DNA of 64,000 nt, taken from Candidatus Omnitrophota bacterium. GTDB lineage: Bacteria > Omnitrophota > Omnitrophia > Omnitrophales > Aquincolibacteriaceae. The notes beneath the pieces were generated by a model. That model did not search any database and was not told the origin of the DNA. It saw nothing but the letters and a program-made list of their open reading frames with translations. How positions within the stretch are numbered: the first letter of the stretch is position 1; each line of letters starts with the position of its first letter. A program made the position numbers and the translations under genes. Below are positions 1-53,227 of the stretch, in pieces. Where the stretch lies: positions 4,622 to 68,621 of the forward strand of contig JAKLFP010000009.1 in assembly GCA_022711115.1 (NCBI GenBank), read 5' to 3'.

Positions 1-3000
1 CGGCATCGGATTCCGCAAGGGCTCCGAAGAGGTACGGCACCGTGGCGAGAAAAGTCATGGGCCGGTGATAGATCGGCTTGGCATAGATCAGCCCGTCCGT
101 CAAAGGATCGGAAGTTCGCTTGTGATTGGCGGAAATTTCCTGAAACCCTTTTTCCGCCATGGCCAGATACTTGGGGTCGCGGGTCACAAGATAGGCATAG
201 GCATAACCGTGAATGGCTTCCGGCGCGCCGTTCAAATAATTCAGCATGCGGCTCAGCATTTCAAAAACTTCAGGCTCCTGGGTCAATGCATGATACGCTA
301 TAAAGGCGCCCGTGTCATAACCGGTCATATAGAGCGGTGCCTTGGGACCGGACCAGGTTTTGAGCATGGGATTATAATTTTCCTGGAAACTGCCGTCCGC
401 GTTCTGCCCTTTCAGAAAGATTTCGATCAATTTATCCGCGGCTTTTTTGTACCGCTCATCCCCTGTTGTTTGATAGAGAAGCACATCGCCCCACAAGGCG
501 TTGGCCATGGCGCGCTGCGGCGCGATATTGGGGACATACGGGTACCCGACATACGTGAAAGGCTCCGTCAGAAAAAATTCTCCGACTTCATTCGCGACAT
601 CCCGCGCGCGTTCATCCCCGGTGATAAAGTGGTATAGCAAAAGCCCGACCACGCTCGTGTGGCTTGACTCATCGGTCCGCCCGCCCCAGTGGTTCCCGTT
701 GTGCCGGTGCATGGCGCCGACCTGGGAATATTTCGGGTGCATGGCCTTGAGCCGCTTGTCGTTTGTGATCGTGTCGTAGTGGATGGTGTCCACATCCATG
801 ATGTGCCGCGCCAGATTTTCCCCGAACTTGAAATATTTATAGAACCCGCTGCGCAAGAATTGAAGGAGCGCGCCGGTATGCGTCCCCACGCCTTCGCAGT
901 TATACCATCCCCACCGCCCGACCGGATACCAGCCCGGCTGAGAATATTTTTTTTCGTCATCCTGGTCGCGCCACCAGGTCAGGGTATCGCCGAAATCCAG
1001 CATGCCGTACCACTGAAAATTTTGCGGCTGGCGATCGGCCCAGTCAAAAAGCTTGTCCAGGATTTTCTCCGCGGTGGCGTTGGCCTTGGTCACGGGATAA
1101 AGACGGCCCGCCGCACCCGTGGCGTCGATCCAGTAAGGGTTCACGCGGATCTGAAGCGGTTCCATAAAAGATTGCGCGAGCGGCCGGGCTTTGGCCTTGT
1201 CCGCGTCATAGGGATGAAAATAAAAAATAAGTTCGTGCGTCTTCCCCACGCCGAACGCGCTGCCCCGGCCAAAAGCATCCGGCCCCTTGGCCTCGGCCGT
1301 GGTCGCCAAGCTTAACTCTCCGGCCTCTTCCGGCCACAGATCGATCTGGAGCGCGTTGTCCTCCGGCCGGTATTTGAACGCCTTAGGATAGTTCTCGCGA
1401 AAATTCCGAAGGGCGACCGTCACGCCGCGCGTCATGTCGGAAATATCAAACCAGCCTTCCAGCAACTTTTCGACCGGCGTGTTCCGGTTCCCGGTATGGA
1501 CCGTGGCGGAGAGATAATCCCGCTGGTAAATGATCATCTCGGAAGTGGGAATGCCCCTGTCAGGTTCCATCTCGACCCGGCCGATCGTCAATTGGACACT
1601 GCCAGGATTCTTGAACGTCAAGGGCATCCGGATCCCGAAATCCTCGATCGTCTCGTTCTCCGGAAGCCGCATCATCTGATACGGACCGAACTGTTTGTTT
1701 TCCGGATAACCGGTATAGATCAGCGTGTGCGCGATCTTCACGTCCGTCTTGCCGAAATAAAAATAATAACGCACGACGATCTGGCAGTACCGGTGGCCGT
1801 CCGCGGACTGGAACCAGCCGCTCGCTTTCAGGACCACCCGCTGCCTGCCTTTTTCCTCGACCTCCAGACGGTAAGTTTTCGTGTCGAGGTCCGCGCGGTA
1901 TTCCTTGCCGCGGAACCCGAGATAAAGACTGGCCCCGGACGTCAGCATTTCGTTTCCGCTGTAAATGCCGTCGCCGTTGGAATCCACGGACACTTTGTCA
2001 AAAAGGAAAAAGGATTTTTTGTCCAACACGGCCTTCAAGAGTCCGGTATTGACCGCGATCGTTTGAGCGTCCTCCTCGATCGTGATGCCGGGCCCGTAAT
2101 CGATGGCCTCGATCGTCGACCCGTAATCAAGAAAAAATCCGAGGTCTTCCCCCGGCTGAAACGTCGCGAGAAAATGAAGCGCCGCCCATTGGACGGACCC
2201 GTCCGGCCACCGGCTGAGCACACGCGGCTGGAACGGAAGGTCCTCTTCCGCGTTGTTGCGCAGACGCAGGTTCCGGAGGGAACGGAGTTCTCCCTGCGGG
2301 AACGGCACCCCGCCCTGCACTTCGCCTTTCCACGCAAATCCCGGCGTTTCATTTTTAACGACAAACGGGACCCTCACGATCGGCGTCTTGGTCGCGCGGT
2401 CTTCTCCCGACCACGCGGGCTTGAGTTTGGCGAATCCGTAATCGAGCATATTGACCGCATGTTTTGTCTTCGCCTGCTTCGCCAGTGCCGCGCGCGCATC
2501 GGGAGTGGGCGTCAACCGGATCTCATCCACGTCAATCGCCTGGTCCTGCCTCAAGCGGTTCATGGAAAAGGATATTTGATTCACCTGCTGGATATTGAGG
2601 GACGCGGCGATGGTTTTCACCGGAATGGAAACCGCCTGCCACCGGTCCGGCGGAAGCGTCACAGGCCGCTGGTAATGCTTGCCCCAAAGGTCCGAGACCA
2701 CCAGCATCACCGTCTGCGGGTCCTTCGCCTCATTAAAGAGATCCAGATCCAGCGACTCAAAGGACGTCCAGTCCGAGATCCCCTTGTGGGTCTTGATCAG
2801 GTCTTCAAGGACAATGCCGGAATAATCGCTCAGCCCCCGGAACGTGACCTTCGCGGAACGCAGTCCGTTGCTGGAGCGGTCCATATGGGGCATCATTTTC
2901 GCGTCCACCAGTTTCCACAGACGGATGTCCTGGTCATGCTCAAAATTCGACAGCACGTAACTGCCGTCCTTTTGCAACCCCGGAAACGGGACTCTTTCGC

Positions 3001-3148
3001 CCAGAAGAAAACGGAAAAACCCGCTCTGCCCGCGCGTCGCCACCGCGACCGCCACGATCACGATCACCGCCGCCACCAGAATGTTCTGGAGCCAGCGTTT
3101 CTTCTTTGATCCAGTTTCGAGTTCAAAGTTTTTAGTTTCGAGTTTCAT
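1..3148 (-). CDS. Large membrane-anchored extracytoplasmic protein, at least 1049 aa; C-terminus runs beyond the window start. Possibly a polysaccharide-modifying (lyase/hydrolase-like) enzyme; function uncertain.
   Basis: Minus-strand ATG at 3146-3148, preceded by a purine-rich stretch. The frame stays open to position 1, so the ORF has no stop in the window and is absent from the track. N-terminus MKLETKNFELETGSKKKRWLQNILVAAVIVIVAVAVA is a signal anchor. The + strand ORFs 65..637, 689..1315 and 1496..3109 all share the same codon register and are antisense shadows. C-terminal part reads as real protein (e.g. LYQTTGDERYKKAADKLIEIFLKGQNADGSF). Confidence 0.55.
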   Translation of the reverse strand, partial: MKLETKNFELETGSKKKRWLQNILVAAVIVIVAVAVATRGQSGFFRFLLGERVPFPGLQKDGSYVLSNFEHDQDIRLWKLVDAKMMPHMDRSSNGLRSAKVTFRGLSDYSGIVLEDLIKTHKGISDWTSFESLDLDLFNEAKDPQTVMLVVSDLWGKHYQRPVTLPPDRWQAVSIPVKTIAASLNIQQVNQISFSMNRLRQDQAIDVDEIRLTPTPDARAALAKQAKTKHAVNMLDYGFAKLKPAWSGEDRATKTPIVRVPFVVKNETPGFAWKGEVQGGVPFPQGELRSLRNLRLRNNAEEDLPFQPRVLSRWPDGSVQWAALHFLATFQPGEDLGFFLDYGSTIEAIDYGPGITIEEDAQTIAVNTGLLKAVLDKKSFFLFDKVSVDSNGDGIYSGNEMLTSGASLYLGFRGKEYRADLDTKTYRLEVEEKGRQRVVLKASGWFQSADGHRYCQIVVRYYFYFGKTDVKIAHTLIYTGYPENKQFGPYQMMRLPENETIEDFGIRMPLTFKNPGSVQLTIGRVEMEPDRGIPTSEMIIYQRDYLSATVHTGNRNTPVEKLLEGWFDISDMTRGVTVALRNFRENYPKAFKYRPEDNALQIDLWPEEAGELSLATTAEAKGPDAFGRGSAFGVGKTHELIFYFHPYDADKAKARPLAQSFMEPLQIRVNPYWIDATGAAGRLYPVTKANATAEKILDKLFDWADRQPQNFQWYGMLDFGDTLTWWRDQDDEKKYSQPGWYPVGRWGWYNCEGVGTHTGALLQFLRSGFYKYFKFGENLARHIMDVDTIHYDTITNDKRLKAMHPKYSQVGAMHRHNGNHWGGRTDESSHTSVVGLLLYHFITGDERARDVANEVGEFFLTEPFTYVGYPYVPNIAPQRAMANALWGDVLLYQTTGDERYKKAADKLIEIFLKGQNADGSFQENYNPMLKTWSGPKAPLYMTGYDTGAFIAYHALTQEPEVFEMLSRMLNYLNGAPEAIHGYAYAYLVTRDPKYLAMAEKGFQEISANHKRTSDPLTDGLIYAKPIYHRPMTFLATVPYLFGALAESDA

Positions 3149-3195
3149 GAAATACCACCCAAATTATGAATGAAGATGTAAGACGTAAGAGGTCA
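3122..3195. repeat. Direct repeat DR1a (74 bp), partner at 4485..4558; flanks DUF4143 ATPase copy 1
   Basis: 2 mismatches in 74 bp. Includes the start codon and first 8 codons of the large gene plus its 5' leader. Confidence 0.85.
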
Positions 3196-4353
3196 TCAGG
3201 CCAAAGGTTTTAGGGTTATAAGATCATGCACAGAAACTGCCCGGACTTTTTTTGCCAAATCAAATGTCTTTTCACCGCAGTGGACGATACAGAGACGCGA
3301 AAGTTTTAAGTCCTTGAGCGCATGATACATCGAGGGAGTCATAGACGGAGCACTCGTCCGTTTGATCTCAAAACCATAGCGGAAGCGGCCCCGGCTGATG
3401 AGCAAATCAAGCTCACTGCCCGCATGGGTAGCCCAACTAAAACAATCTTCTCGATTCACTTTTAAAATCCGAATAAGCTGGCTTACGATGAATCCCTCCC
3501 ACGAAGCGCCGATTTTGGGATGGCGTTCCAGATCGATTTCATTTTTGATGCCGAGTAAAGTATGCAGGATCCCTGTGTCCGCAACATAAATTTTGGGCGC
3601 TTTCACCTGCCGTTTGGAAATATTTTCATGCCAAGCGGGCAATTGCCGTATCACAAAAGCACCGGTCAATATATCGAGATAATGCCTGACGGTCGTATCC
3701 GCCAATCCAAAAGCCCTCGCAAATTCCGACGAATTCCATCGCTGACCATGGTAATGGGCAATCATATGCCAAAATCTGCGAAGCGTCTCAGCCCGCACCG
3801 TAATCCCCAACTGCGGCAGATCTCTTTCAAGAAATGTTTTAATAAAATTGCGCCGCCACAGTTCTGACTGCGCAAGCGATTTTGCCAGATAAGAATCCGG
3901 GAAGCCCCCTCTCAACCACAGGCGATCCATAGACTGAATGCCGATTTCCTCAATGTAAAATTCACCCAGTTCATGATAGGCAATCCGGCCGGCCAGGCTT
4001 TCGGATGAAACCTTCAATAAATCCGGAGAGGCACTTCCAAGAATGAGAAACCGGCGAGGGATCTTAGCATCGTCGGCAAGCACTCGAAGCATCGGGTAGA
4101 GGGAGGGTTTTCTTTGAATTTCGTCAATCACCACAAGACCCTGCAAAGATTTTAAAGCAAGCATGGGGTCCGACAAACGAGCGACATCCTCGGGATTTTC
4201 CAAATCAAAATAATGCACCGGCCCCTTAAACGATCTCCCGATCTCTAAAGCGATCGTTGTTTTGCCCACTTGTCGTGCGCCCACAATTCCCACCACCGGG
4301 AATTGCCTTAATAACTTTAAGATGGAAGCCGTCTCACTTTTTCGCTTTATCAT
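3196..4353 (-). CDS. AAA+ ATPase with C-terminal DUF4143 (COG1373 family), copy 1. Start is probably an internal Met of the track ORF 3196..4455.
   Basis: Walker A GARQVGKTT near the N-terminus. C-terminal ELDLLI...FEIK looks like a PD-(D/E)xK nuclease motif. Paralogous to 19216..20358 and 22376..23608. Confidence 0.8.
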   Translation of the reverse strand: MIKRKSETASILKLLRQFPVVGIVGARQVGKTTIALEIGRSFKGPVHYFDLENPEDVARLSDPMLALKSLQGLVVIDEIQRKPSLYPMLRVLADDAKIPRRFLILGSASPDLLKVSSESLAGRIAYHELGEFYIEEIGIQSMDRLWLRGGFPDSYLAKSLAQSELWRRNFIKTFLERDLPQLGITVRAETLRRFWHMIAHYHGQRWNSSEFARAFGLADTTVRHYLDILTGAFVIRQLPAWHENISKRQVKAPKIYVADTGILHTLLGIKNEIDLERHPKIGASWEGFIVSQLIRILKVNREDCFSWATHAGSELDLLISRGRFRYGFEIKRTSAPSMTPSMYHALKDLKLSRLCIVHCGEKTFDLAKKVRAVSVHDLITLKPLA

Positions 4354-4484
4354 GCTAAAACTATACCTTGAAAATTCGGTGTTGTCAACCGAGATTTCAA
4401 TGTCACTTTCCCTTCTATTTTTTATGCTTACCTCTTCCCTTGTCTCCCGTTCCACGATCCACGAACCGCGGATCGGGTTCCGGG

Positions 4485-4558
4485 TTCAGAGTTTTTAGTT
4501 TCGAGTTTCATGACATACCACCCAAATTATGAATGAAGATGTAAGACGTAAGAGGTCA
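4485..4558. repeat. Direct repeat DR1b
   Basis: See DR1a. Confidence 0.85.
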
Positions 4559-4642
4559 GAGGTAAGAGAAAATCTTACTTCTTAATTCTTACTTCTCTAC
4601 TTCTTACTTCTTGATTTACCTCTCCACTTCAGAGTTCCGAGT

Positions 4643-4734
4643 TTCGAGGACCACGTGACGGTGTGCTGGTGTCCTGCCTCTCGTCAGGGACGGTTCTTGC
4701 GACAAGAACCGTCCCTAGCGCGTCCCTCGTCTCT
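4643..4734. repeat. R1 element, partial copy D (core only)
   Basis: Same core. Upstream of DUF4143 ATPase copy 1. Confidence 0.75.
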
Positions 4735-4748
4735 CGCCCCGTTCCCCA

Positions 4749-5993
4749 CTACGCTTCTCTCTTCATCACCGCGACAAGCGCCGCCAGAACCCAGAAATAC
4801 GACGAGACATTATGATAAAAAATTTTTGTCTCATAAAAATTGCTCAACACAAACGCGGGAATACTGCCCAGAAACCCCAGGGCCAGCCCCTTGGCCCACC
4901 GGTCATGCGTCTTGAGGTAGAGCGCGAGCGTGTCCCAAAAGATCTTGATGAGCAGCCACAGGAACACGGCCAATGCCGGCAGTCCCATTTCCGCGCCGAT
5001 CAGCAGATACGTGTTGTGCGCGTCCGTGGAAGCGGCTTTGGACCAGTAATGCACCAGTTTGGCCGGAAACAGATCATAGCCCACGCCCATAAACGGATGT
5101 TCCTTGATCATTTGCATGCCACCCTTGTAGATTTCAACGCGCCCCTGCAGACTCGGGTCCAGGACTTCGCGCACCTCGCCGGCCTGATACCGGCGCTCAT
5201 ACGTCTGGCCGAGCCGGTGCCGAACCCCGTCCGGTAAAAAAGCGGGATTCAAATACAAAAAAATCGAAACCCCGAGCAGTAAAACAAAAAGCAGCCGGCT
5301 CCGCAAAAAGACGATCCCATGCAGCGCGACTGCCAGCGCCAGATAAGCCCCACGCGAAAACGTGCACATCAGGGCCCGCACCATGACCAGAAAAGGGACC
5401 AGCAGCAGCCAATATTTCCGGTCGCGAAAGTTGATCAGAAAAAAACCGAGCATAAGAAACAAGGTGTATGCCAAAAATGCGCCCAGGACATTGGGATCCC
5501 CAAACACCACTTCGATACGGTCCGGCCGCCGCATATACTCCACCAGCGTGTAAACACCGATCAAGCCCGCCACCGCGCACAGGATGACGCAAATTTTTTT
5601 GCCCTCTTCACGGGTTTTCGCCAGATAAAGTACGAGCGTGTAAGCGAAAAAAGGCATCAGCCAGTTCAGATAAAAGGAAAGCGCGGCCTTGCCCAGATAT
5701 TCCGCGCCGTAACTCATGCCGGACAAAATGGAGATGCCTCCGAGCGCCACGAAGCAGAGCATGGGCACTTTAAGCGGATGGGCAACGGACGCGGCGTTTT
5801 TTTCTTCCGCCCGCCGGCGCCACAGAGCCCACCCCGTAAGCAGTAAAAATAAATTAGCAGCGTTAAACACACCCGGCAGGAACGGCAGACTCATCCAGTT
5901 GCTCTGGCTGAACGGCAGGCACGCGAGGAAGCCGTAGAACGGTGTTTGCGCACTACCTAAAAAATCTTTTATTCCGTTAGTGTTTTTTTCCAC
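4749..5993 (-). CDS. O-antigen ligase family (Wzy_C) polytopic membrane protein
   Basis: More than 10 hydrophobic segments. Central periplasmic loop with FSRGAYLALAV and a TDAHNTYL motif typical of Wzy_C/WaaL-like proteins. Confidence 0.7.
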   Translation of the reverse strand: MEKNTNGIKDFLGSAQTPFYGFLACLPFSQSNWMSLPFLPGVFNAANLFLLLTGWALWRRRAEEKNAASVAHPLKVPMLCFVALGGISILSGMSYGAEYLGKAALSFYLNWLMPFFAYTLVLYLAKTREEGKKICVILCAVAGLIGVYTLVEYMRRPDRIEVVFGDPNVLGAFLAYTLFLMLGFFLINFRDRKYWLLLVPFLVMVRALMCTFSRGAYLALAVALHGIVFLRSRLLFVLLLGVSIFLYLNPAFLPDGVRHRLGQTYERRYQAGEVREVLDPSLQGRVEIYKGGMQMIKEHPFMGVGYDLFPAKLVHYWSKAASTDAHNTYLLIGAEMGLPALAVFLWLLIKIFWDTLALYLKTHDRWAKGLALGFLGSIPAFVLSNFYETKIFYHNVSSYFWVLAALVAVMKREA

Positions 5994-6842: not shown

Positions 6843-7244
6843 TCATGTGAAAGATCTCCAGTGATCGTGCAATTTAAATAATTTTGCGCCTAATTCTTCA
6901 TAACCCGCCAAAAGTTTTTCGTAGGAATCAGAAAGCAAATAGCCACAATTCAATGAGAACAACAACCAGCACTTTGTTTCCTCGCAAGAACCAATGGCAT
7001 CGATCAGGTGCCGCTTAAAAAGCTCAGTATAACGACGCTTACCCCACCTTTCTGCAATGTTTGCAGCTGACGAACGTGACGACCTGCGCCTCTGATCCAC
7101 CAGTGAATATTTCTCTTCCTTCGGAAACGTCTTCGTCGCTTCAAAAATTTTTATCGCCAGTTCATGGGCTAATTGATAAACATTCAAATCCCTGAATGTC
7201 TTTATCGCTTTTTCTTTTTTTATACTTCCTACTTCGGACTTCAT
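6843..7244 (-). CDS. Four-helix-bundle protein (23S rRNA intervening-sequence protein family, TIGR02436-like)
   Basis: FRDLNVYQLAHELAIKIF...ANIAERWGK core motif. Three paralogs in the window. Confidence 0.8.
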   Translation of the reverse strand: MKSEVGSIKKEKAIKTFRDLNVYQLAHELAIKIFEATKTFPKEEKYSLVDQRRRSSRSSAANIAERWGKRRYTELFKRHLIDAIGSCEETKCWLLFSLNCGYLLSDSYEKLLAGYEELGAKLFKLHDHWRSFT

Positions 7245-7283
7245 ACTTCTTTTTTTCTCCTTAATTCTTAATCCTGCCTTTTC

Positions 7284-8459
7284 TTAATTCTTATTTCTTG
7301 CTTCCAAATAAATCTCCTCATGCCGCTTCACCATCTGCGCCACGCTGAACTCGCTGCGGACCCGGTCGAGCGCATTGGCGACGAGATTTTTTCTGAGCTC
7401 CGGGCTATCCGCGAATCGCGCCAACGCCTGCGCAAGGACTTCCGGATTTCCAACCGGGATCAAAAGACCGGTCTTTTCATGCTCCACACATTCGCTCACG
7501 CCGCCGACATCCGTGGCCGCCACCGGCACACTCGCCGCCATGGCCTCCAGCACGGTCATGGGAAAACCCTCGCGTTCCGAACAGAGCACAAACGCGTCCA
7601 TGGCCGCGTAAAGCCCCGGCGTATCATCGCAAAATCCCGCGAAAATAATCTCATGCCTGAGATCCCAACCCCGCGCTTTTTCCTCCAGGGCTCGCCGCTC
7701 CGGACCGTCGCCGATCACAAGACCGCCGACATTGCGTCCCGATTTCTTAAGCCGCGCGACCGCCTCGATAAAATCCTCCTGGCGTTTCTGCGGCACCAGC
7801 CTGCCCACGGTCCCGATCAGAAACCGGTTCCTGGGAACCCTGAACCGCTCCCGCACCTTGTCACGTTCCTTGTCCTGCTTAAAAAATTCCGTGTCAATCC
7901 CGTTATAAATCACCGTTGTCCTGGACCGGAGCGCCGGCACCTTGTCTAAATAAAACGCCTCTACTTTTTTACTCACGCAAATCACTTTGCGGCTGATGCC
8001 TGCCACGATCCGGTCTATCCAGAAATGATAAGGTCTTTTCCAAAGGTCCACATTGTGCTCGGTCATGACAATCGGCACGCCGGTGATCCATGCCATCAGG
8101 CGCCCCCACAGATTCGAGGTAAAAAGATGCGAGTGGATCACATCGATCTTTTCGCGGCGTATCAGCTCCCGAAGTCTGCCCAAAAACCCGAAATCCACGC
8201 GCCCTTTTTTCCCGAGCGCTTCGATTTTGATGCCGGCCGCTTCCGCGCGAAAGGCATAGCGCCCTTTTTCATTCAAACAGCAGATCACGGGCTCGAATTT
8301 CTGCCGGTCCAGCCCCGCCGCGAGATTCAGCACCACCTGCTCCGCCCCGCCCTGGTCCAGGGACCAAATTAAATACAAAATCTTGATTTTCTTTGAACCG
8401 TTTTCACACTTCATTGAAAGCCCCTTGAATATTTCCTTGTCAAAATCAAAACCAACCAC
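7284..8459 (-). CDS. Glycosyltransferase family 4 (GT-B, group 1)
   Basis: C-terminal EGFPMTVLEAMAASVPVAATDVGG...E motif (EX7E region). Start is probably the internal Met MKCENGSKKIKILYL, about 8414. Confidence 0.85.
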   Translation of the reverse strand: MVGFDFDKEIFKGLSMKCENGSKKIKILYLIWSLDQGGAEQVVLNLAAGLDRQKFEPVICCLNEKGRYAFRAEAAGIKIEALGKKGRVDFGFLGRLRELIRREKIDVIHSHLFTSNLWGRLMAWITGVPIVMTEHNVDLWKRPYHFWIDRIVAGISRKVICVSKKVEAFYLDKVPALRSRTTVIYNGIDTEFFKQDKERDKVRERFRVPRNRFLIGTVGRLVPQKRQEDFIEAVARLKKSGRNVGGLVIGDGPERRALEEKARGWDLRHEIIFAGFCDDTPGLYAAMDAFVLCSEREGFPMTVLEAMAASVPVAATDVGGVSECVEHEKTGLLIPVGNPEVLAQALARFADSPELRKNLVANALDRVRSEFSVAQMVKRHEEIYLEARNKN

Positions 8460-8735
8460 GCGGATTAAGGATTCAGAATTAAGGAATACGCAAAGCAGAA
8501 GTAGGAAATAAGATGTATGAAGTAAGATTTTTCATATTTCCTACCTCCGACCTCATACTTCAGTTTTCCCTTCTCCATCCCCCATTCCTCACTTGCGCCG
8601 ATGCGCAAGTACCACACCGTGGCGCCCAAGGTTAACGCCTACGGCGACGGCCTTCCCGCATTCGGCATTCCGAATTCTCCATTTCGCCTCTCACCGTTAC
8701 GCCCCACTCCCCACATGGTACTTGGTCCGTGCTAC

Positions 8736-9539
8736 TCAATACGCTCTTTCAATCGAACTGCGGACCAAATCCCGGTCAAAAAGCCTCCGCTCCTGCTCGT
8801 CTTCCAGAAAACGCTCCACATCCGCTTGGGCCGCTTCAAAATCAATGCCCTCGATCCTCTCGAGCAAAAACGCCTTAAACGTTTCTCGGCTCAAATCCAG
8901 GCGCTTTTTCTCCGTCTGTTCAACGGCGTTATTCAAGAAAGTGAAATTCGGGACCGTTTTCCGCCCGACATACCAGATAAAATCATACCAATCCCGTCCC
9001 TTGTTATAGCCGCGGAAAAAACAGGCGTGCAGTTTGCCCGCGAACATGGACGGCAGGTCGTAATGCGCGACCCCGAAAAGATGGATCTTGTTCAGGATCG
9101 TATGAAGGATCACGGCCCCTTCCGGCGGACGCGTGTCCATGTCCCATTTGATCATCAGCTTTTCATCCGGCATGGCCGCCACGCCGAGGTCCTTGAACAG
9201 TCCGGGGAATTTGATCATCAGACTCTTGACCGCGCCCTGCTCCCGGGACTTGCCCTCCGCCTCGATCCCGTAAGACCGGTAGGATTTCAATAACGCTTCC
9301 GCGGCATCCCCAAACACGAACTCTTTTCCCGGAATCAGAGAAAAATCCAGATCCTCCGAAAAACGGCGCAAGTCAAAAAGGATCCTCAGCGCCGTCCCGC
9401 CAAGAAAAGCGGCAAAATCAAACATGCCCTTGTCACTCATGATCTTCAGGCACAAGACCTGAAGATATTCCCGGGCCATGTTCTTTTTCTGCTCCGCGGT
9501 CATCCCTTTCTGAAATTGATTCTGGATCAGATCGATCAT
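8736..9539 (-). CDS. abiEii: AbiEii/AbiGii-family nucleotidyltransferase toxin (type IV TA), pair 1
   Basis: FLGGTALRILFDLRRFSEDLDFSL nucleotidyltransferase motif (GG[TS]A...SEDLDF). ATGA overlap with the upstream AbiEi gene at 9536-9539. Confidence 0.85.
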   Translation of the reverse strand: MIDLIQNQFQKGMTAEQKKNMAREYLQVLCLKIMSDKGMFDFAAFLGGTALRILFDLRRFSEDLDFSLIPGKEFVFGDAAEALLKSYRSYGIEAEGKSREQGAVKSLMIKFPGLFKDLGVAAMPDEKLMIKWDMDTRPPEGAVILHTILNKIHLFGVAHYDLPSMFAGKLHACFFRGYNKGRDWYDFIWYVGRKTVPNFTFLNNAVEQTEKKRLDLSRETFKAFLLERIEGIDFEAAQADVERFLEDEQERRLFDRDLVRSSIERAY

Positions 9540-10171
9540 GACTTCCCCTCCGCGAGTTCGATCACCGCGTCGAGCACGCGCATCAGTTTCGGAGAACAAA
9601 ACAGTTCCCCGAACCGTTTCAGCTTCCCGGTCTTCAGACCAACCGCATTTTGAAAACGGTAGGACTTCATCATCATGGCCTTCACATCCTTCTGGAACAA
9701 ATGGAGATTCAAATAAATAAAATCCACAACGGCTTTTTCAGGCTCGGCCATAAAAAAACGCGCCCCCGCATCGCCTTCGAGCCGGAAACCGCGAAAGGCC
9801 GCTGGACTGACATGCTGATAAATAAAAGTACCCAAAGGGTTGGTGAACCGCATCGTCTTTCGCGTGGTAATCGAAGTGACCGCGGCCACCCGTTCCGGAA
9901 TCAGGTCATAAGACGCGAGCGCCGTTTCAAGACTGACATACGAAGGCGCATAGATCTGACAGGCAAGATACATGCCTCCGGGGTTCACCTTGCGGTCATT
10001 CTCATTCAGGACATAATAACCTTTACGCAAATGCCGGAGTAACCCTGCCTTGGCCCAGCGCGTCAGCTGATTCCGGACCGATTGCGGTGCCTCGCCGCTT
10101 TGCGAGATCACCAGCCGGCTGTCAATGAGCGGTAGATGCTGGAAAAATGCTCGAAACTTGTTGTAATTCAT
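9536..10171 (-). CDS. abiEi: AbiEi-family antitoxin/transcriptional regulator, pair 1
   Basis: N-terminal winged-helix region (QSVRNQLTRWAKAGLLRHLRKGYYVL) typical of AbiEi. Immediately upstream of AbiEii and translationally coupled to it. Confidence 0.8.
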   Translation of the reverse strand: MNYNKFRAFFQHLPLIDSRLVISQSGEAPQSVRNQLTRWAKAGLLRHLRKGYYVLNENDRKVNPGGMYLACQIYAPSYVSLETALASYDLIPERVAAVTSITTRKTMRFTNPLGTFIYQHVSPAAFRGFRLEGDAGARFFMAEPEKAVVDFIYLNLHLFQKDVKAMMMKSYRFQNAVGLKTGKLKRFGELFCSPKLMRVLDAVIELAEGKS

Positions 10172-10302
10172 TTCTAACTATACTCCTTTTTGATTATCAT
10201 TAGAAATGATTACATATAATACCTAAAAAGTCAAGCGCGCCACACCGATACGCCCACTCGCCCATTCGCAATCACGCCGTTACTCCGATACGCCCTTCGC
10301 CA

Positions 10303-12321
10303 TCACGGCCTTCCCCTTACCGCATGAAGCAGGGCATGGAGCTCGTCATAAGCGCCCGCGAGCTTCAGACGGAATCTCTCCAACGTGTCATCGCCCGCGA
10401 TCTCCGTGCGCCTTAGCAAAAACGGATTCTCCACAACCCTCGCATTTTTTTGTTGAACATAGCCATTCCAGCCCGGCCGGTTCGAACACGCGCCGAAATA
10501 GCCGGCCTCTTTCACGAAACGAACGGCTTCTTCATCATAAATACCGTACGGATAACAAAACAATGAAACCTCGCCTCCCAGTTCTTCCTCCAGCATTTTC
10601 TTGGATCCCAGAATTTCCCGCTTTTTGTCTTCCGCGCTCAAAGCATTTAATTTCGGATGGGTGATTGTGTGAGAACCAAACTCAATCCCCTGCCGGCGCA
10701 TTTCGTTGATCTGCGACAGTGTTAAATAATCCGGCTGGCCGACTCTCCCGGCGATGCAAAAAACCGCAGCCGTGAACCCGCATTCCTTCAGCACCGGAAA
10801 GGCGTGTTCGAAATGATCCTGCCAGCCGTCATCAAACGTGATGGCAACAGATCCGTCCGCAGCTTTGCCCGTAAGAATATCCGAAAGCGAGACGATCCGA
10901 TAATCCTGGTTTTTCAGATACTGCATCTGTTCGCGGAAACGGGCCGGCGGCACATTCAGGTAATCTGCCGCGCCATCCTGAACGCGGTGATAACACAGGA
11001 TCCGCGTACATCGCGGCGCCGCGCGGTTCAGGCTTTTGACCGCGTTCACGCACCGGGCAAGCAGTAAAGAGGCCTTGGCCTTCGCGGGGGGGATGGGCCC
11101 ATCTGTGGCAATCAGGCGTTTTCTGAATTCCCCGATATTTTTTTTCAGATCGAACTGTTCATGGACCACTTGATGCCCGGCCTCCGCCGTTCGCACCCGC
11201 AGCGCGTCATCGTGATAAAGACGCTCAAAGGCCTCGGCTAGTTTTTCGGGATTTTTATGCGGCACGAAAAATCCGGTCTCGCCTTCGACGATCAATTCCT
11301 CGACCGAACCGAAATGCGTGGTGATCACCGCCGTCCTGGCCGCGAGCGCTTCGATGATCACATTCGGAATCCCCCAATGCCATTCCGCCTGGGCCATTAA
11401 GACTGAGACATCCGCGCTTCTGCAATAAGGAATCACCTGGGTTTGCTTGAGCGCGCCGGTCATGGTGACATACGACTCGAGACCCAACGTCCCGATGAGC
11501 CCGCGTAACTCCGCCTCCATGGGTCCGCCACCGATGATCGTGCAGTGAAAATTTAGCCGCTTTTTTTTAAGGATCGCGAGCGCGTTCACAAGATGATCAA
11601 AACCTTTGTGTGGGTCCAGGGACCCCACCGAAAGGATCTGAAAAACGGGATTCCGTGTCTTGTCCCCGACATCGAAAAGAGAAAGGTCCAGGCCGTGATG
11701 ATTGATCAGGATCTTGTCCGGATCGACACCTTTTGCCACCTCCCGCAGATACGTCTTGTTGCTTACTGTGCATGTGCCGACAAAAGTCGCGGCCATGATC
11801 TTCTCGCGAAGGTGCGTGGTGTTCAGATAAATATCGTGCGCGTGTCCCGTCATGCTGAACGGGATCCCGGTGATCCGGGAAGCCGCCATCGCCACGGAAG
11901 CAGGATACGTGGCCCAGTAGCCGTGAAAATGCGTGGCCTTGTTTTGGAGCGCCCAATCCGCGAGATACAGGGCCTTGGGGAAGAAGATGAGGTTCTTCCA
12001 TAAAAAATTAAAACTTCCGAGATTCCCGCGCACGAGCTGAAAAAAAGCACCCAGCGTTTTGAGCGGCCGGGTGCAAAGCAATTTGATCCCGGCCCAAATC
12101 AGTCTCCAGGAAAAAAACGAAACATGAACTGTGCGGCTCAAAAGTTCCCGGGCCTGGTCATGGATCACTTTGTCTTTGGATTTTTTCAGGGAAAAGATCG
12201 CGATCGCTGTTTCTTTGGAGAGCGCGTACAATTCGCGCAAAATGAACGCCTCCGTGTAGCATGGAAATTGAGAAACGACAAAAACAATCCTCTTTGATGA
12301 AACCTCTTTACCAGTATTCAT
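10303..12321 (-). CDS. Fusion protein: GT4 glycosyltransferase (N-terminal) plus NodB-type polysaccharide deacetylase (C-terminal)
   Basis: GT4 EX7E-like region (NVIIEALAARTAVITTHFGSVEELIVEGETG). C-terminal TFDDGWQDHFEHAFPVLKECGFTAAVFCIAG and HTITHPKL match NodB motifs. Confidence 0.8.
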   Translation of the reverse strand: MNTGKEVSSKRIVFVVSQFPCYTEAFILRELYALSKETAIAIFSLKKSKDKVIHDQARELLSRTVHVSFFSWRLIWAGIKLLCTRPLKTLGAFFQLVRGNLGSFNFLWKNLIFFPKALYLADWALQNKATHFHGYWATYPASVAMAASRITGIPFSMTGHAHDIYLNTTHLREKIMAATFVGTCTVSNKTYLREVAKGVDPDKILINHHGLDLSLFDVGDKTRNPVFQILSVGSLDPHKGFDHLVNALAILKKKRLNFHCTIIGGGPMEAELRGLIGTLGLESYVTMTGALKQTQVIPYCRSADVSVLMAQAEWHWGIPNVIIEALAARTAVITTHFGSVEELIVEGETGFFVPHKNPEKLAEAFERLYHDDALRVRTAEAGHQVVHEQFDLKKNIGEFRKRLIATDGPIPPAKAKASLLLARCVNAVKSLNRAAPRCTRILCYHRVQDGAADYLNVPPARFREQMQYLKNQDYRIVSLSDILTGKAADGSVAITFDDGWQDHFEHAFPVLKECGFTAAVFCIAGRVGQPDYLTLSQINEMRRQGIEFGSHTITHPKLNALSAEDKKREILGSKKMLEEELGGEVSLFCYPYGIYDEEAVRFVKEAGYFGACSNRPGWNGYVQQKNARVVENPFLLRRTEIAGDDTLERFRLKLAGAYDELHALLHAVRGRP

Positions 12322-13490: not shown

Positions 13491-13701
13491 CGATGCTCCT
13501 TTTTGAGCTTATCGCAATTTGCGATAACCTGCTCTGGGTCCAAAACTTCGAGTTTTATACTTTTAAAATTCTAAATTCGAATCTCGAAGCACGAAACAAA
13601 CTATCTTGAAAGCAAGAAATCCTAATTTCTAAATTCGAAACAAATCTCAAATTCCAATTTCTGAAACAACAAAACCCCTTGTTTGGGATTTCTGATTTAG
13701 G

Positions 13702-13753
13702 CATTGTTATTTGTTTCGTATTTCAGATTTAGTGCTTCGGATTTTTTTCATTG
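13702..13753. repeat. About 50-bp direct repeat (partner at 14110..14157) flanking the four-helix-bundle gene 13729..14112
   Basis: About 85% identity. Copy 1 encodes the gene C-terminus and stop. Copy 2 retains a degenerate version of the same 3' end. Confidence 0.7.
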
Positions 13754-14112
13754 TCCGTTTTTTTAAGTATAGCTCCAAAGATACACATAAGCTCCGTGGC
13801 TTCTTGCGCCAAAGCATCTTTCGTTTTCTTAGCAAGATCGTCGTCGACTGAGATCAAGCTGAGCCAATATTTGCTTTCTTTGGCTTCTTTTTTACAAATT
13901 TTAATTCGCATCACAAAATCCTTCTTGCTTAACGAATCATTGGCTTCAATGTAATTCGCCCCGACAGATCCTGACGAACGAACTAGTTGTTTTGCATCTT
14001 CAATATTGGACAAACTGCGCGGTAGTCTTTTAAGAAATTCACGGGTATTTTTCGCAAATCTCAAAGTTCGATCTTCTAAGTCGTATTGTTTGTGATTTTC
14101 CGATTTATTCAT
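13729..14112 (-). CDS. Four-helix-bundle protein (TIGR02436-like)
   Basis: EDRTLRFAKNTREFLKRLP...SVGANYIEANDSLSKKDF motif. Flanked by a 50-bp direct repeat. Confidence 0.8.
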   Translation of the reverse strand: MNKSENHKQYDLEDRTLRFAKNTREFLKRLPRSLSNIEDAKQLVRSSGSVGANYIEANDSLSKKDFVMRIKICKKEAKESKYWLSLISVDDDLAKKTKDALAQEATELMCIFGAILKKTDNEKNPKH

Positions 14113-14157
14113 TGTTATTTGTTTCGAATTTCGTATTTAGTGTTTCGGATTTCATTG
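14110..14157. repeat. Partner of the 13702..13753 repeat
   Basis: See above. Confidence 0.7.
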
Positions 14158-17307: not shown

Positions 17308-17533
17308 TCGGCGTGTTCACCGTTACGTCCCGCGCCCCGTGTCTCGTTCCCCGTTCCCCGTTCCCCGTTCCGGGTTACGAGCACCACGCGTCGGTGTGCC
17401 GGTGTCCTGCCTCTCGTCAGGGACGGTTCTTGTCGCAAGAACCGTCCCTAGCGCGTCCCTCGTCTCGTGTCCCGAATTTAAAGCTTCGGATTTTGGGCCT
17501 TCGTTACGAAGGAACGTATTGCCACCCTTCATC
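17308..17533. repeat. R1 MITE-like element, full copy A (226 bp)
   Basis: About 95% identical to 23689..23914. Core has a perfect 13-bp inverted repeat (GGGACGGTTCTTG / CAAGAACCGTCCC) plus a second hairpin (CCTTCGTTACGAAGG). Confidence 0.8.
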
Positions 17534-17659: not shown

Positions 17660-18685
17660 TCAACTTTCTCGCCGGGCACGATTCACAATAAAAGAGACAC
17701 TCGGCGACATACGACAGGGCTCAATTCGAATCTGAGGATGATTCTTGGCAAAAACCCGGAAAACCTCATCCGCAAAACCCTGTCCGACGCCCCGGACACC
17801 GCTGAAATCCATCATGATCCGCTTAAATTTTTCCAGACCGAACAGAAGCCGGCGCGCTTCGGACCGGGAGACGTATTCTCCCGATGTTTTAGAGAACCGG
17901 ATCTTGACCTCGGTCTTATCAAAAACAAGGTCGCTATCGGTGTAGGCGCCAAAGAGCTTCTTGAGATCCTTGCGGGATCTTTGACGTAATGAGAAGGTGA
18001 CTTTCGTCCCTTGGAGGGGCTTCCTATCCAGCAGCGAGACGTCCTGGATAAGATTATTGACATCCAGCTTCAAGGCCCTGCTTTCCAGAACAAAGTGATC
18101 CGCGATGCGGGAAGTGAAAAAAATGCCTTGCCCGGAATGCCGCTCCGGCGCTGTGGTCTGTTTTCCTTTCAGCAAATGTTCCGCAGCTTCAAAGGCATCC
18201 CTCATCTTGAATTTTCTGCGAATGCTTTCAAAAGCCCCGATCCCGCGGTCCGAAACCGTGAAAGTAAGGATCCCTCCCTCCCATCGGACCTCGATCCTGA
18301 CCCTGGCCGCCTTGGAGTGGTCGATGGCGTTGTTGAGCATTTCCGTAAAGGCGTACTGAACGATCTTGAACGCCGATGGAGACAATTGCCTCTTTAAGTG
18401 CGTCCGGTGCGCCCATGCCTCAAAAACACGATCTTCTTCAAGCCCTCGAATTTTATAAACAAGAATGATGGACGGAGTTTTCAAAGAAGCCGCTTTTTTA
18501 GGGTTGAACGGAATATACCGCGCGCCGCGCGTCACCCCCTCCCTGAGAAGCTGCCTGGACGCGACAAGTTCCCGCAAGTGTTTCGCCGCGGCCTGACGGG
18601 AGATCCCGGAAAAGCGGACCACATCGGCGGCCCGGATCGCTTTTTTTTGACGCACAAAACGGAGAATTTTTTCTTTATTCTTCAT
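17660..18685 (-). CDS. HTH plus histidine-kinase-like ATPase (HATPase_c) protein with C-terminal DUF4325 (STAS-like)
   Basis: N-terminal HTH (RFSGISRQAAAKHLRELV). N-box-like FTEMLNNAIDHSKA. C-terminal DFSGVRGVGQGFADEVFRVF typical of DUF4325. Confidence 0.6.
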   Translation of the reverse strand: MKNKEKILRFVRQKKAIRAADVVRFSGISRQAAAKHLRELVASRQLLREGVTRGARYIPFNPKKAASLKTPSIILVYKIRGLEEDRVFEAWAHRTHLKRQLSPSAFKIVQYAFTEMLNNAIDHSKAARVRIEVRWEGGILTFTVSDRGIGAFESIRRKFKMRDAFEAAEHLLKGKQTTAPERHSGQGIFFTSRIADHFVLESRALKLDVNNLIQDVSLLDRKPLQGTKVTFSLRQRSRKDLKKLFGAYTDSDLVFDKTEVKIRFSKTSGEYVSRSEARRLLFGLEKFKRIMMDFSGVRGVGQGFADEVFRVFAKNHPQIRIEPCRMSPSVSFIVNRARRES

Positions 18686-18764
18686 AAGAAAAGACTACCT
18701 GATGGGAAACCAATTGTAAACCTTAAAATAAATAATTGTAAACCACGCCTCACGCACTTGCGCC
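18685..18764. repeat. Direct repeat DR2a (80 bp, identical), partner at 20534..20613; flanks a block containing DUF4143 ATPase copy 2
   Basis: Perfect 80-bp identity. Begins at the start codon region of gene 17660..18685. Confidence 0.85.
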
Positions 18765-18768: not shown

Positions 18769-18820
18769 GGTGACAGTCACCCAAAAGTGACTGTCACTTC
18801 ACGCCGTTACATCATTCCGC
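18769..18820. repeat. REP2 palindromic element, copy 2
   Basis: See copy 1. Confidence 0.75.
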
Positions 18821-19203
18821 ATTCGGCGTTCGGCATTCCCTCGTCTCGCGCCCCGTGCCCCGTCTGTGGCATTTTCAATCAAAATTTTCCTGATCTTCAA
18901 CGTCTTCCCGGTCAGGATCTGTAAGGGGTCGATTACGTTCTTTCTGTTTTGTAAACCAACCAGACGCCCGGCCTCGGTCATGATTTTAATGTTTGTACCG
19001 TTAAGCTTCTCGACAGCGATCGTGTCTGGATCGTCAAAGACCCATTCGAAACCAGGGCTCACCCGGTCGACCGCGAGACGCACCTCCGGAGCACGCAAGC
19101 CGTACCGGCTGCCACATTGCGCAAACTGATCCTTATTGACCGGAAAGGTCTGGCGAAGGAACGGGCATTCGATCTTTGGGAAATCAGTCAGTGTTTCCAT
19201 CAT
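18799..19203 (-). CDS. Hypothetical protein, 134 aa; possibly a truncated ATP-dependent ligase-like nucleotidyltransferase
   Basis: VEKLNGTN resembles ligase motif I (KxNG). The ORF ends in the REP2 palindrome. Weak. Confidence 0.3.
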   Translation of the reverse strand: MMETLTDFPKIECPFLRQTFPVNKDQFAQCGSRYGLRAPEVRLAVDRVSPGFEWVFDDPDTIAVEKLNGTNIKIMTEAGRLVGLQNRKNVIDPLQILTGKTLKIRKILIENATDGARGARRGNAERRMRNDVTA

Positions 19204-19215: not shown

Positions 19216-20358
19216 TCAAAGGAGCTTACCGCTCCAAAGACGCTCGAGGAATTCTTGCCAGGGTAAGATTTCGATCCCTCCGGGGATGCTCCGGGGTTCC
19301 CTCTCAGTACAAACCACCACAGCCTTTTTTACGGGACCGTCTTCGAGAAGAGCTCGAAGGCCCCTCAGGTCCCCTTCATGAACTTTTCCGGACTTGATCT
19401 CGACCGCCGCTTCTTTTTCGCCAAGAATAAAATCCACTTCCTGTTTCGCTGCGGTACGCCAGTAGCGGATCGTCATCTCCGGCTCCCGGTAGGCCTGGTA
19501 CGCGCGCAATTCCATGAGGATGAAATGCTCGAACGCTTTTCCGAAATCGCTGTTACCCGGAACGGGATGCCGGCCGGCCAGAAACCCCGCGACGCCGACG
19601 TCAAAAAAATAAAATTTTTCGGCAAGAATCATGCGCCTGTTCTCTGACTTTGTCCAAGGGGGGATACGAAAACCCAAAAAAGTATCCTCGAGAATGTCAA
19701 AATACAAACGGACCGTCCGCTGCGAAACGCCGCACTCGCGGGCGATGTTGGTATAGTTCAGGATTTCGCTCGAAGTCAGCGTGGCGACCCGCAAAAAATC
19801 AGAAAAAGAAGGAATGCTCTGCGTCAGCGCTTCCGCGGCGATCTCTTCTTTCAGGTAATCCGCGACATAGGAGCGAAGATCCTCGGCGGGGCTCTCTGAA
19901 AGAAAATGGGGTGGCAGCATCCCGGTGAAGAGCGCCTTTTCCAATTGGAAGCCCGTGACCTCGGAAAAGGATAGCGGCAACATCACACGCCGCCACGCCC
20001 GTCCTCCCAACAAATTGGCATGCCCTCTTCGGAGCTTCCTGGCGCTGGATCCCGTCAAAAGAAATTGTGCTCCCCGTTCTTCGATCAACCACTGAACCTC
20101 GTCGAGAAGCCGCGGTATTTTTTGAACTTCGTCGATCACGATCATTTTTCCGTATTTTTCGTACCGCTCGCGCAAAAGCGCCGGTCGCGCCGCATATTCG
20201 GCAAAAACATCCGTTTGAAGCAGATCGATCAGCTTAACGCCTTTAAGGTGTTTGCGGATCCAAAAGCTTTTTCCTGCTTTACGCGGACCCCACAAAAAGC
20301 AGGATTTTCCCTTAGGGAGGTGAAGGTCGACTTGGCGCTCTATGATTTTTGTACTCAT
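19216..20358 (-). CDS. AAA+ ATPase with C-terminal DUF4143 (COG1373), copy 2
   Basis: Walker A GPRKAGKS. C-terminal EVDFILGEK...VEIK looks like a PD-(D/E)xK motif. Confidence 0.8.
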   Translation of the reverse strand: MSTKIIERQVDLHLPKGKSCFLWGPRKAGKSFWIRKHLKGVKLIDLLQTDVFAEYAARPALLRERYEKYGKMIVIDEVQKIPRLLDEVQWLIEERGAQFLLTGSSARKLRRGHANLLGGRAWRRVMLPLSFSEVTGFQLEKALFTGMLPPHFLSESPAEDLRSYVADYLKEEIAAEALTQSIPSFSDFLRVATLTSSEILNYTNIARECGVSQRTVRLYFDILEDTFLGFRIPPWTKSENRRMILAEKFYFFDVGVAGFLAGRHPVPGNSDFGKAFEHFILMELRAYQAYREPEMTIRYWRTAAKQEVDFILGEKEAAVEIKSGKVHEGDLRGLRALLEDGPVKKAVVVCTEREPRSIPGGIEILPWQEFLERLWSGKLL

Positions 20359-20533: not shown

Positions 20534-20613
20534 TAAGAAAAGACTACCTGATGGGAAACCAATTGTAAACCTTAAAATAAATAATTGTAAACCACGCCTC
20601 ACGCACTTGCGCC
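20534..20613. repeat. Direct repeat DR2b
   Basis: See DR2a. Confidence 0.85.
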
Positions 20614-20649: not shown

Positions 20650-20768
20650 CGTTCCGGGTTACGAGGACCACGCGTCGGTGTGCCGGTGTCCTGCCTCTCG
20701 TCAGGGACGGTTCTTGCGACAAGAACCGTCCCTAGCGCGTCCCTCGTCTCGTGTCCCGGGTTTCGGGA
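20650..20768. repeat. R1 element, partial copy C (core only)
   Basis: Same 13-bp IR core. Upstream of DUF4143 ATPase copy 2. Confidence 0.75.
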
Positions 20769-23688: not shown

Positions 23689-23914
23689 GTGCCGGCGTAT
23701 CGGCGTGTTCGCCGTTACGTCCCGCGCCCCGTGTCTCGTTCCCCGCTCCCCGTTCCGGGTTACGAGCACCACGCGTCGGTGTGCCGGTGTCCTGCCTCTC
23801 GTCAGGGACGGTTCTTGCGACAAGAACCGTCCCTAGCGCGCCCCCCGTCTCGTGTCCCGAATTTAAAGCTTCGGATTTTGGGCCTTCGTTAAGAAGGAAC
23901 GTATTGCCAACCAT
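23689..23914. repeat. R1 element, full copy B
   Basis: See copy A. Lies between DUF4143 ATPase copy 3 and the ligase 3' end. Confidence 0.8.
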
Positions 23915-41707: not shown

Positions 41708-41802
41708 AACTCTCGTTTTGAAGAAGTAAGAGGTAAGATAAAAGCTGTTTCTTATTTCTTAATTCTTACTTCTTATTTCTTACTTCTCGGCGCTTTCCGC
41801 CG

Positions 41803-53226: not shown

Positions 53227-53227
53227 T

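Follow-up and report, generated by a model that had tools for sequence, protein, structure and literature searches.

A gene for an AAA_14-DUF4143 ATPase-nuclease, belonging to the candidate defence type PDC-S01, stands between two near-identical copies of the start of its downstream neighbour, a gene for a PcRGLX-like enzyme, in a 64 kb stretch of DNA (hereafter the window, i.e., the whole stretch analysed) from a metagenome-assembled genome (MAG) of Candidatus Omnitrophota (NCBI names). The window corresponds to a polysaccharide (exopolysaccharide) locus of the PEP-CTERM/exosortase type, and the ATPase gene in question is the first of three DUF4143 copies in it (copy 1). On balance it appears probable that copy 1 was horizontally acquired as a cassette composed of a promoter plus an open reading frame (ORF), that the repeat is a target duplication associated with its insertion, and that the insertion was mediated by the host with no transposase of the element itself.

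Direct Repeats on Both Sides of the ATPase Gene

In the first-pass annotation of this DNA, a near-identical pair of sequences had been noted around the ATPase gene, and this pair was recovered by blastn as a repeat core of 75 nucleotides (nt) matching at 73 of the 75 positions (97.3% identity, 2 mismatches, E = 8e-33; coordinates in Table 1). By a repeat search and a self-blast of the window, the repeat can be extended to 88 nt at 93% identity, with 5 of the 6 mismatches lying within 19 nt at the end on the side of the coding sequence (CDS). The 88-mer occurs only twice in the 64 kb. As had also been noted, the repeat holds the leader, the start codon and the first codons of the large PcRGLX gene, namely 47 nt of leader, the ATG and 9 to 13 codons; the first 9 codons are covered by the core and 13 by the left copy of the extended repeat (MKLETKNFELETG). 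The ATPase gene does lie between the copies, its stop codon (3196-3198) abutting the left copy and its ATG being 117 nt from the right copy. At 75-88 nt (the range across other loci of the family being 24-150 nt), the repeat indeed far exceeds the target-site duplication of a transposase.

The two copies differ in their surroundings. While the left copy provides the functional start of PcRGLX, the right copy continues upstream, its part 4531-4558 (+ strand) being one arm of a GTAAGA/TCTTAC hairpin (4531-4620), and as such it sits in its native upstream context. From the ATG duplicated in the right copy extends a remnant ORF which, from its sequence, is probably non-functional. Between the right copy and the cassette lies a filler with weak similarity to the PcRGLX CDS at 3052-3070 (P about 0.01-0.03) and to the Wzy/PcRGLX junction of a sister lineage; the similarity to 3052-3070 was too weak for this part of the CDS to be retained as the origin of the filler. 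Inspection of both novel junctions revealed no convincing microhomology.

The same arrangement is present in at least four independent assemblies. Three long contigs from separate projects, namely JGI Ga0116241_10000470, NCBI DAOOUA010000008.1 and ENA k141_848702, agree over the whole of both copies (100% identity); in short contigs of other samples (L005, L006, and L102), the sequence passes from Wzy via the right copy on into the ATPase gene; and other contigs (L008 and L009) end inside the repeat, as a genuine repeat predicts. Since independent contigs are identical over both copies or cross the right copy, and since there are 2-6 differences between the copies, unlike in k-mer artefacts, an artefact of assembly was ruled out. 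Two of the short contigs, L005 (SPAdes) and L006 (MEGAHIT), originate from different samples and both terminate exactly at 4208 inside the ATPase gene, a shared end that may be a strain variant or a branch of the assembly graph.

Table 1. Features at and around the copy 1 cassette, in window positions.
Feature	Positions	Strand	Description
PcRGLX-like gene (GH127-annotated polysaccharide lyase/hydrolase)	1..3148	-	N-terminal transmembrane helix; truncated by window edge; target whose start is duplicated
Left (downstream) repeat copy	3108..3195 (core 3121-3195)	-	functional PcRGLX leader (47 nt), ATG 3146-3148, first 13 codons
Lineage-specific segment, 1664 nt	3109..4772	-	stands in place of 132 nt of the sister's Wzy/PcRGLX junction
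AAA_14-DUF4143 ATPase-nuclease gene, copy 1, 385 amino acids (aa)	3196..4353	-	PADLOC PDC-S01; COG1373
Conserved cassette unit	3196..4408	-	from 5 nt before the palindrome to the stop codon; sole part aligning with the closest relative
Cassette promoter in palindrome	4360..4403	-	16-bp arms 4388-4403 and 4365-4380; -35 TTGACA 4383-4388; 17-nt spacer; -10 TATAGT 4360-4365
Filler, 62 nt	4409..4470	-	non-conserved; between right repeat copy and cassette; low-complexity, CGTGG-type
Remnant ORF, 27 codons	4428..4511	-	duplicated ATG, MKLETKN (7 identical codons), 20 diverged codons, TAA
Right (upstream) repeat copy	4471..4558 (core 4484-4558)	-	continues natively into upstream hairpin
Wzy_C gene (Wzy1; O-antigen ligase/polymerase-like)	4749..5993	-	ancestral upstream neighbour of PcRGLX; overlaps PcRGLX in sister lineage

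The Insertion as a Derived State

That the ATPase gene was inserted at the 5' end of the large gene, as proposed at first pass, is borne out by relatives in which Wzy adjoins PcRGLX directly. In the sister lineage (Wzy 72% identical in aa; contigs L096, L097, and L098 from three sources), GT-deacetylase, Wzy and PcRGLX follow each other in this order, DUF4143 is absent and the Wzy stop codon and the PcRGLX ATG overlap by 4 nt. In two more distant relatives also without DUF4143, the two genes overlap by 8 nt (L093/L094) or are separated by a gap of 115 nt (L095). Since the sister and the two more distant relatives all lack the ATPase at this junction, the insertion is derived. Nucleotide homology between the window and the sister covers 5891-4773 (Wzy1) and 3108-1 (PcRGLX), with 4772-3109 unmatched, and this lineage-specific segment comprises, in the order of transcription, a repeat called B (4634-4741), the hairpin, the right repeat copy, the filler, the cassette and the left repeat copy.

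Because the blastn alignment with the sister starts again precisely at 3108, the repeat could have been regarded as foreign to PcRGLX, a reading ruled out by the protein sequences. The PcRGLX N-termini are related, i.e., TKNF-ELET-GSKKKRW in the window, VKDF-L-AAKKKRRW in the sister and VKDF-F-GSKRKHAW in P0002, a PcRGLX relative of 81% identity with 124 nt of its contig ahead of the gene; thus the repeat is, in its coding part, native to PcRGLX and the right copy derived. The junctions concur, as the right copy runs on into the upstream hairpin and the left copy into the PcRGLX CDS, an asymmetry that fits a target duplication.

As regards an empty site, one exists at the level of the lineage, in the sister, but no strain-level allele with a single 88-mer and no ATPase was met. 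The exact pattern of the repeat core retrieved from JGI metagenome contigs only L009, in which this PcRGLX gene breaks off within the left copy, and contigs with Wzy1, the ATPase and PcRGLX, together with their 90%-cluster variants, gave only the same arrangement or were broken in the repeats. Elsewhere in the locus, the order of GT4-a and GT4-deacetylase is swapped between the window (7287-12321) and L096 (6707-9882); with two glycosyltransferase genes exchanged in this way, the locus can be considered recombination-active, core genes being shuffled too.

Cassette Boundaries and Promoter Palindrome

The limits of the cassette are given by its closest relative, P0040 (86% aa identity; contigs L090/L091), which aligns at 80% nt identity over 4408-3196 only, both flanks being unrelated; the host organism of P0040 has low-complexity spacers of a similar style. 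At its 3' end the cassette stops just at the stop codon, while the sequence 5' of the palindrome is non-conserved. The promoter within this palindrome matches the consensus at 11 of 12 positions and is the top promoter-like site of the region. Because the ATG comes only 6 nt past the -10 box, a leaderless mRNA is probable.

The same architecture, ACCWTGAAAAT...TTGACA...ATTTTCWAGGT-TAnnAT-N6-7-ATG, recurs upstream of homologues, and a palindromic promoter was found at 67 of 77 homologue loci in about 15 phyla. Across 44 aligned sequences, 88% of the cells are paired and 12 of the 16 palindrome pairs have changed on both sides (120 cells), the observed pairing being reached by none of 500 shuffles and slid controls being 32-53% paired. 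The outer half-sites are conserved, as a dimer-bound operator predicts. The inner five bp differ freely between lineages yet stay complementary, the -35 box lying in the "loop." On these alignments, the inner pairing seems to exceed the needs of a simple operator, as if selection acted on pairing itself, and suggests that the palindrome may have a role as DNA hairpin or cruciform beyond that of a plain operator. The literature searched on DUF4143, COG1373, PDC-S01 and the Pfam families contained nothing on a promoter palindrome, cassette boundaries or flanking duplications.

The Encoded Protein and Its Family

Against Pfam, the protein of copy 1 matches AAA_14 (74.6 bits, cutoff 27) and then DUF4143 (143 bits, cutoff 28.1), and copies 2 and 3 likewise match both. 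Against PADLOC, it matches PDLC04790 (E = 1.4e-80) and six more PDC-S01 models; as such, it has the same domain architecture as PDC-S01, with scores of the hidden Markov models far above threshold. No NCBIfam model matched, and no solved homologue was found by sequence. The protein exhibits a Walker A motif (GARQVGKT), a Walker B motif (VVIDEIQ) and an intact nuclease motif (D316...E329-x-K331). Its predicted structure is composed of a STAND/Orc-like ATPase, a winged helix region and a C-terminal domain with the PD-(D/E)xK fold and its D...ExK motif, in agreement with the PD-(D/E)xK-like C-terminus proposed at first pass. Identity is only 13-22% to the archaeal "Walker-type/AAA+" ATPases PABY2304 (2qen) and SSO1545 (2fna) and to STAND NTPases (Avs, NLR, CED-4); unlike Avs and NLR proteins, the present protein has no C-terminal sensor repeat domain, the nuclease being C-terminal instead. 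The ATPase is the only credible ORF in 3196-4470 and has no transposase domain; neither a transposase, an integrase nor terminal inverted repeats were found in the insert.

We infer a STAND-like NTPase that switches on a PD-(D/E)xK nuclease and a candidate gene for defence or abortive infection, which would probably repress itself through the palindrome spanning its -35 box. PDC-S01 has been described as an ATPase fused to a PD-(D/E)xK domain and is reported to rank as the fourth most common defence candidate in prokaryotes, with 29,494 bacterial and 9,986 archaeal instances (PMC12988326); DUF4143 figures among the PD-(D/E)xK families whose function is unknown (PMC3424549). The family counts more than 8000 matches, with about 65% aa identity across phyla, and its carriage by viruses is negligible (0, then 2 matches among 2.9 million viral contigs).

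Bracketing Repeats across the Family

Beyond the window, a genome scan yielded 80 family loci with homologues of 48-66% identity, from Deltaproteobacteria, Planctomycetota, Chloroflexota, Verrucomicrobiota, Acidobacteriota, Elusimicrobiota, Chlamydiota, Spirochaetota, Bacteroidota, Omnitrophota and others. A gene was considered bracketed when a direct repeat occurred on both of its sides within 700 nt (blastn E <= 1e-3), and all remaining ORFs of 250 aa or more at these loci (n = 328) served as controls. Bracketing repeats were found for 13 of 88 family genes vs 11 of 328 control ORFs (odds ratio 5.0, p = 2.5e-4), and 2 of these 11 bracketed "controls" are DUF4143 genes of other subfamilies. 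In a comparison restricted to the ends of the unit, an exact shared substring of at least 12 nt between ATG-250..-45 and stop-15..+150 was present at 6 of 65 loci vs 0.13% of mismatched pairs.

These repeats are 24-150 nt long and 76-100% identical, and they are composed of adjacent host sequence. In the compact cases, the downstream repeat starts -12 to +46 nt from the stop codon, and 58-124 nt separate the end of the upstream repeat from the ATG; since the repeats are thus anchored at the stop codon and before the ATG, the inserted unit is the same promoter-plus-ORF cassette. The targets differ between loci, i.e., the final 106 nt of a methyltransferase-like gene lying upstream (L084), the final 60 nt of a 1041-aa gene (L026), the signal-peptide-encoding start of a 1131-aa gene for a secreted protein that lies downstream (L043), which resembles copy 1 of the window, and, for an EtfA-like gene in convergent orientation, its 3' end together with the terminator (L010). 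At L050, the repeat consists of orphan FolD 3' fragments and a second, degenerate operator, while the case of L078 probably reflects mere neighbouring ankyrin paralogues. The two DUF4143 genes of other subfamilies belong to Elusimicrobia MAGs, with a repeat of 130 nt at 99% identity in L060 (2066-2195 and 3572-3701) and of 95 nt at 96% in L062 (8722-8816 and 10528-10622); the L060 repeat takes in the last 55 nt of the ATPase ORF, as if the unit were circularly permuted or tandemly duplicated.

Other Bracketed Modules in the Window

All three DUF4143 copies of the window, only 21-28% identical to each other, are bracketed by repeats. Copy 2 (22379-23608) is bracketed by 169 nt (93%) of the CDS 3' end of Wzy2 (22201-22369 and 23934-24099), the displaced 3' end starting 6 nt past the ATPase stop codon, and its upstream palindrome differs (ATTTTAAAGTA/GTACTTTAAAAT). 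Copy 3 (19219-20358), together with a truncated ligase-like ORF (18802-19203), stands between the two copies of an 80-nt repeat of 100% identity (18685-18764 and 20534-20613) that corresponds to the apparently leaderless promoter of the HATPase-DUF4325 gene; this duplication looks very recent.

Further modules with such repeats encode other proteins. The pair AbiE-3 (AbiEi/AbiEii, 25703-27362) lies between 210-nt copies of the Wzy2 5' end (25158-25367 and 27435-27644, 82% identical), each about 78% identical to the sister Wzy; the upstream copy is orf100 (27381-27680), the orphaned original start of Wzy2, in which the overlap with GT4-c is kept as in the sister. For IVP-2, a 23S-rRNA-IVP gene (13732-14112), 67-nt repeats (13679-13744 and 14086-14152) overlap the gene's own ends. 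AbiE-2 and the DUF6036 module are bracketed by 23 nt and 26 nt, respectively, and the AAA_22 gene stands between two 5' ends of the ParA-type kinase gene (41597-41709 and 42914-43029), orf133 being the orphan. Altogether, bracketing concerns 7 of 15 accessory modules in the window vs 3 of 24 core genes, the 7 including the three DUF4143 copies and the AbiE pair. In this genome, the footprint thus extends beyond DUF4143, as an AbiE pair and a 23S-rRNA-IVP gene are also bracketed by duplicated host sequence.

The Host Locus

The core of the locus is composed of genes for Poly_export, Wzz/GNVR, a ParA-type kinase, AAA_22, a flippase, many glycosyltransferases, two Wzy and the PcRGLX-like enzyme. 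Unusually, nearly all junctions between core genes are occupied by accessory genes, namely the three DUF4143 ATPases, four AbiEi/AbiEii pairs, three 23S-rRNA-IVP genes (with a fourth just past the left edge of the window), two ORF6N, two Fic, one HATPase-DUF4325 and one DUF6036. At gathering thresholds, Rfam gave no match anywhere in the window.

Two kinds of non-coding sequence recur in the locus. The 108-nt repeat B is present four times (4634-4741, 17367-17474, 20651-20758, and 23752-23859) at 89-97% identity, each copy just 3' of a gene, i.e., Wzy1, HATPase-DUF4325, AbiEii-2 and Wzy2, respectively. It contains a conserved hairpin (GGGACGGTTCTTG-TCGC-CAAGAACCGTCCC), is not found in the sister locus and is without Rfam match; a role in termination, RNA processing or recombination is conceivable. 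Between cistrons, in the lineage of the window as in the sister, the spacers are made up of runs of hexamers or heptamers, namely (GTAAGA)n/(TCTTAC)n, (CGAAACT)n/(AGTTTCG)n and (GGTACGTGG)n, which fold as long imperfect hairpins and encode some gene starts and ends. Such hairpins are found at 4531-4620, 7216-7305, 8496-8561, 44630-44720 and 47839-47928 in the window and at 4300-4350, 5470-5520, 7810-7880 and 9880-9960 in the sister contig L096; this style of operon punctuation is odd and possibly common to the whole lineage. Adjoining the FeeM/HisK end of the polysaccharide locus, 51930-63909 is an apparent separate mobile/restriction island with a tyrosine recombinase, a small serine recombinase, a 922-aa protein of the ResIII helicase type and a methylase-like 702-aa ORF.

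Comparison with Known Mobile Units

Some genomic islands regenerate the end of the gene into which they insert, namely the islands at tRNA/tmRNA 3' ends and those of dusA 5'-end-specific integrases. The likeness to elements of the tRNA type suggested at first pass stands in that direct repeats of a target gene end flank the insert and one copy completes the gene, here at the 5' end as in dusA. It fails in that the insert has neither a tyrosine nor a serine integrase, the targets vary between loci, the repeats range over 24-150 nt and the unit is a single gene of 1.2 kb; lacking an integrase, the insert is not an integrative element of the tRNA-island type. The nearest recombinases, at 51.9-53.8 kb, belong to the separate island 48 kb away. 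Compared with transposons and insertion sequences, there is no transposase (DDE, HUH, tyrosine, or serine), no terminal inverted repeats and no short duplication of fixed length.

Free-standing homing endonuclease genes of phages (seg/mob type) normally home without flanking duplication. Like the present cassette, they are single nuclease genes with their own promoter, lying between conserved adjacent genes and spreading horizontally, a comparison of architecture only, but the cassette differs by its flanking duplication, its STAND-like ATPase and its cellular rather than phage gene pool. Integron cassettes are also compact single-ORF units with a structured palindromic boundary, found in arrays with toxin-antitoxin-like genes; they are promoterless and carry attC at the 3' end, however, whereas here the palindrome is at the 5' end and holds the promoter. 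An integron cassette was rejected, as the sole tyrosine recombinase reaches 31.9 bits vs a cutoff of 265 for integron integrases, the unit has its own promoter and there is no attC-like site 3' of the ORF.

Origin of the Duplication

According to the explanation that we favour, a single-gene cassette, running from the palindromic promoter and leaderless ATG to the stop codon of the AAA_14-DUF4143 ORF, would have been acquired horizontally and would have entered the once-tight Wzy-PcRGLX junction of the exopolysaccharide operon. Insertion would have duplicated 75-88 nt of the target, i.e., the leader, the ATG and the first codons of PcRGLX, so that the downstream copy leaves PcRGLX intact and translatable and the upstream copy would be an orphan. 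Most likely, recombination or replication of the host, instead of a transposase encoded by the element, would have brought about the insertion; the routes considered are (i) single-crossover integration of a circularised fragment with a copy of the gene end, (ii) homology-facilitated illegitimate recombination, and (iii) template switching at the hairpin spacers. Such routes fit better than a classical transposon because the repeat length is variable, the filler is non-conserved and there is no conserved 3' end. In an operon of overlapping genes, moreover, only those insertions in which the disrupted gene end was duplicated would survive, so that footprints would accumulate here.

Several points weigh against this explanation. 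The duplicated length is uncertain (75 nt, 88 nt, or longer with later deletion) since 5 of the 6 mismatches cluster at one end, and the filler between the right copy and the cassette is not accounted for by it. The sister is an empty site at the lineage level rather than a clean single-copy 88-mer, because its overlapping genes leave no leader, and among the close contigs every one of the population has the insertion, with neither an empty site nor a polymorphism at strain level. At the scale of the family, about 85% of the loci have no bracketing repeat, the range of 76-100% identity would fit old duplications as well as copies that were different from the start, and the enrichment may reflect a recently acquired gene rather than DUF4143, the controls being mostly core genes. 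As for a putative defence role, in one published E. coli screen the PDC-S01 gene was outside the four protective candidates.

Copies different from the start are what a Campbell-type event predicts, where a circle carrying the cassette and the PcRGLX start of a related donor recombines with the chromosome by host RecA and the replacement start is then used, much as with islands targeting tRNA genes or dusA except for the reliance on RecA. A single crossover of such a target-bearing circle yields exactly the topology observed; repeat identities of 76-95% elsewhere fit the divergence between donor and recipient, the orphan FolD 3' fragments travelling with the L050 cassette look like hitch-hiking donor flank, and both the footprint beyond DUF4143 and the shuffled gene order relative to the sister, i.e., frequent recombination in the locus, agree with it. 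This event nonetheless requires a donor with the cassette already beside the same gene, homologous recombination works poorly between stretches of 100-200 nt that are 76-82% identical, the 80-nt repeat of copy 3 is 100% identical, and neither a circular form nor a donor allele was observed; we regard it as unlikely. Less probable still is an 88-mer that would be a dispersed intergenic repeat (REP- or MITE-like) present on both sides by accident, or a product of assembly: the genome is rich in intergenic repeats (the four B copies, the recurrent GTAAGA-type hairpins), and the 88-mer lies partly within a hairpin and has a low-complexity coding part, (CGAAACT)n, but it is found in 2 copies only in the 64 kb plus flanks, a count that largely refutes dispersal, and spans the unique junction of leader, ATG and CDS, while the agreeing assemblies and the 2-6 differences speak against an artefact. 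Either origin is very improbable.

The remaining alternative concerns the role of the protein itself. The cassette could be self-mobile, with the ATPase-nuclease as the mobility enzyme of a one-gene selfish element and the palindrome, possibly as a DNA hairpin, as its recognised end; staggered cuts by the nuclease, wide and variable in spacing, would on repair produce duplications of 24-150 nt. All three window copies and 13 of the 88 family genes are bracketed, as are two genes of other subfamilies with repeats of 95-130 nt at 96-99%; the repeat geometry is anchored at the ends of a unit with sharp limits, palindrome on one side and stop codon on the other; in the palindrome, the inner 5 bp vary but pair, as selection on pairing predicts; the nuclease motif is intact; and the family is huge and promiscuous. 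These points are countered by the absence of any conserved 3'-end sequence past the stop codon, the 8-70 nt of variable, non-conserved filler that separate the upstream repeat from the palindrome, the highly variable repeat length, the many loci without repeat, the like footprints at cassettes other than DUF4143 (AbiE-3, IVP-2) and the lack of near-identical copies at different sites, those of the window being so divergent; self-mobility is accordingly judged quite unlikely. That the AAA_14-DUF4143 (PDC-S01) genes would as a whole be widespread minimal one-gene selfish elements, not primarily devoted to defence, with the palindrome as hairpin or cruciform forming a recombination end and the ATPase plus nuclease inserting the unit at staggered nicks far apart, so as to leave long duplications of variable length like the 88-mer, appears decidedly doubtful.

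Significance

PDC-S01 genes are very common, and the present locus bears on their mode of spread. The locus shows a gene known as a defence candidate to be a promoter-plus-ORF cassette with sharp limits, the insertions of which leave long target duplications of variable length. It offers precise bounds for the cassette, an insertion that is derived, the sister lineage having the empty site, and recurrent long repeats of host sequence across phyla, and as such it bears on how single defence genes without mobility genes enter genomes, even in the middle of a tight operon. Were it true that the protein drives its own insertion, a major "defence" family would have to be reread as a selfish element. 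The footprint recurring across phyla hints at how PDC-S01 genes may spread without a transposase.

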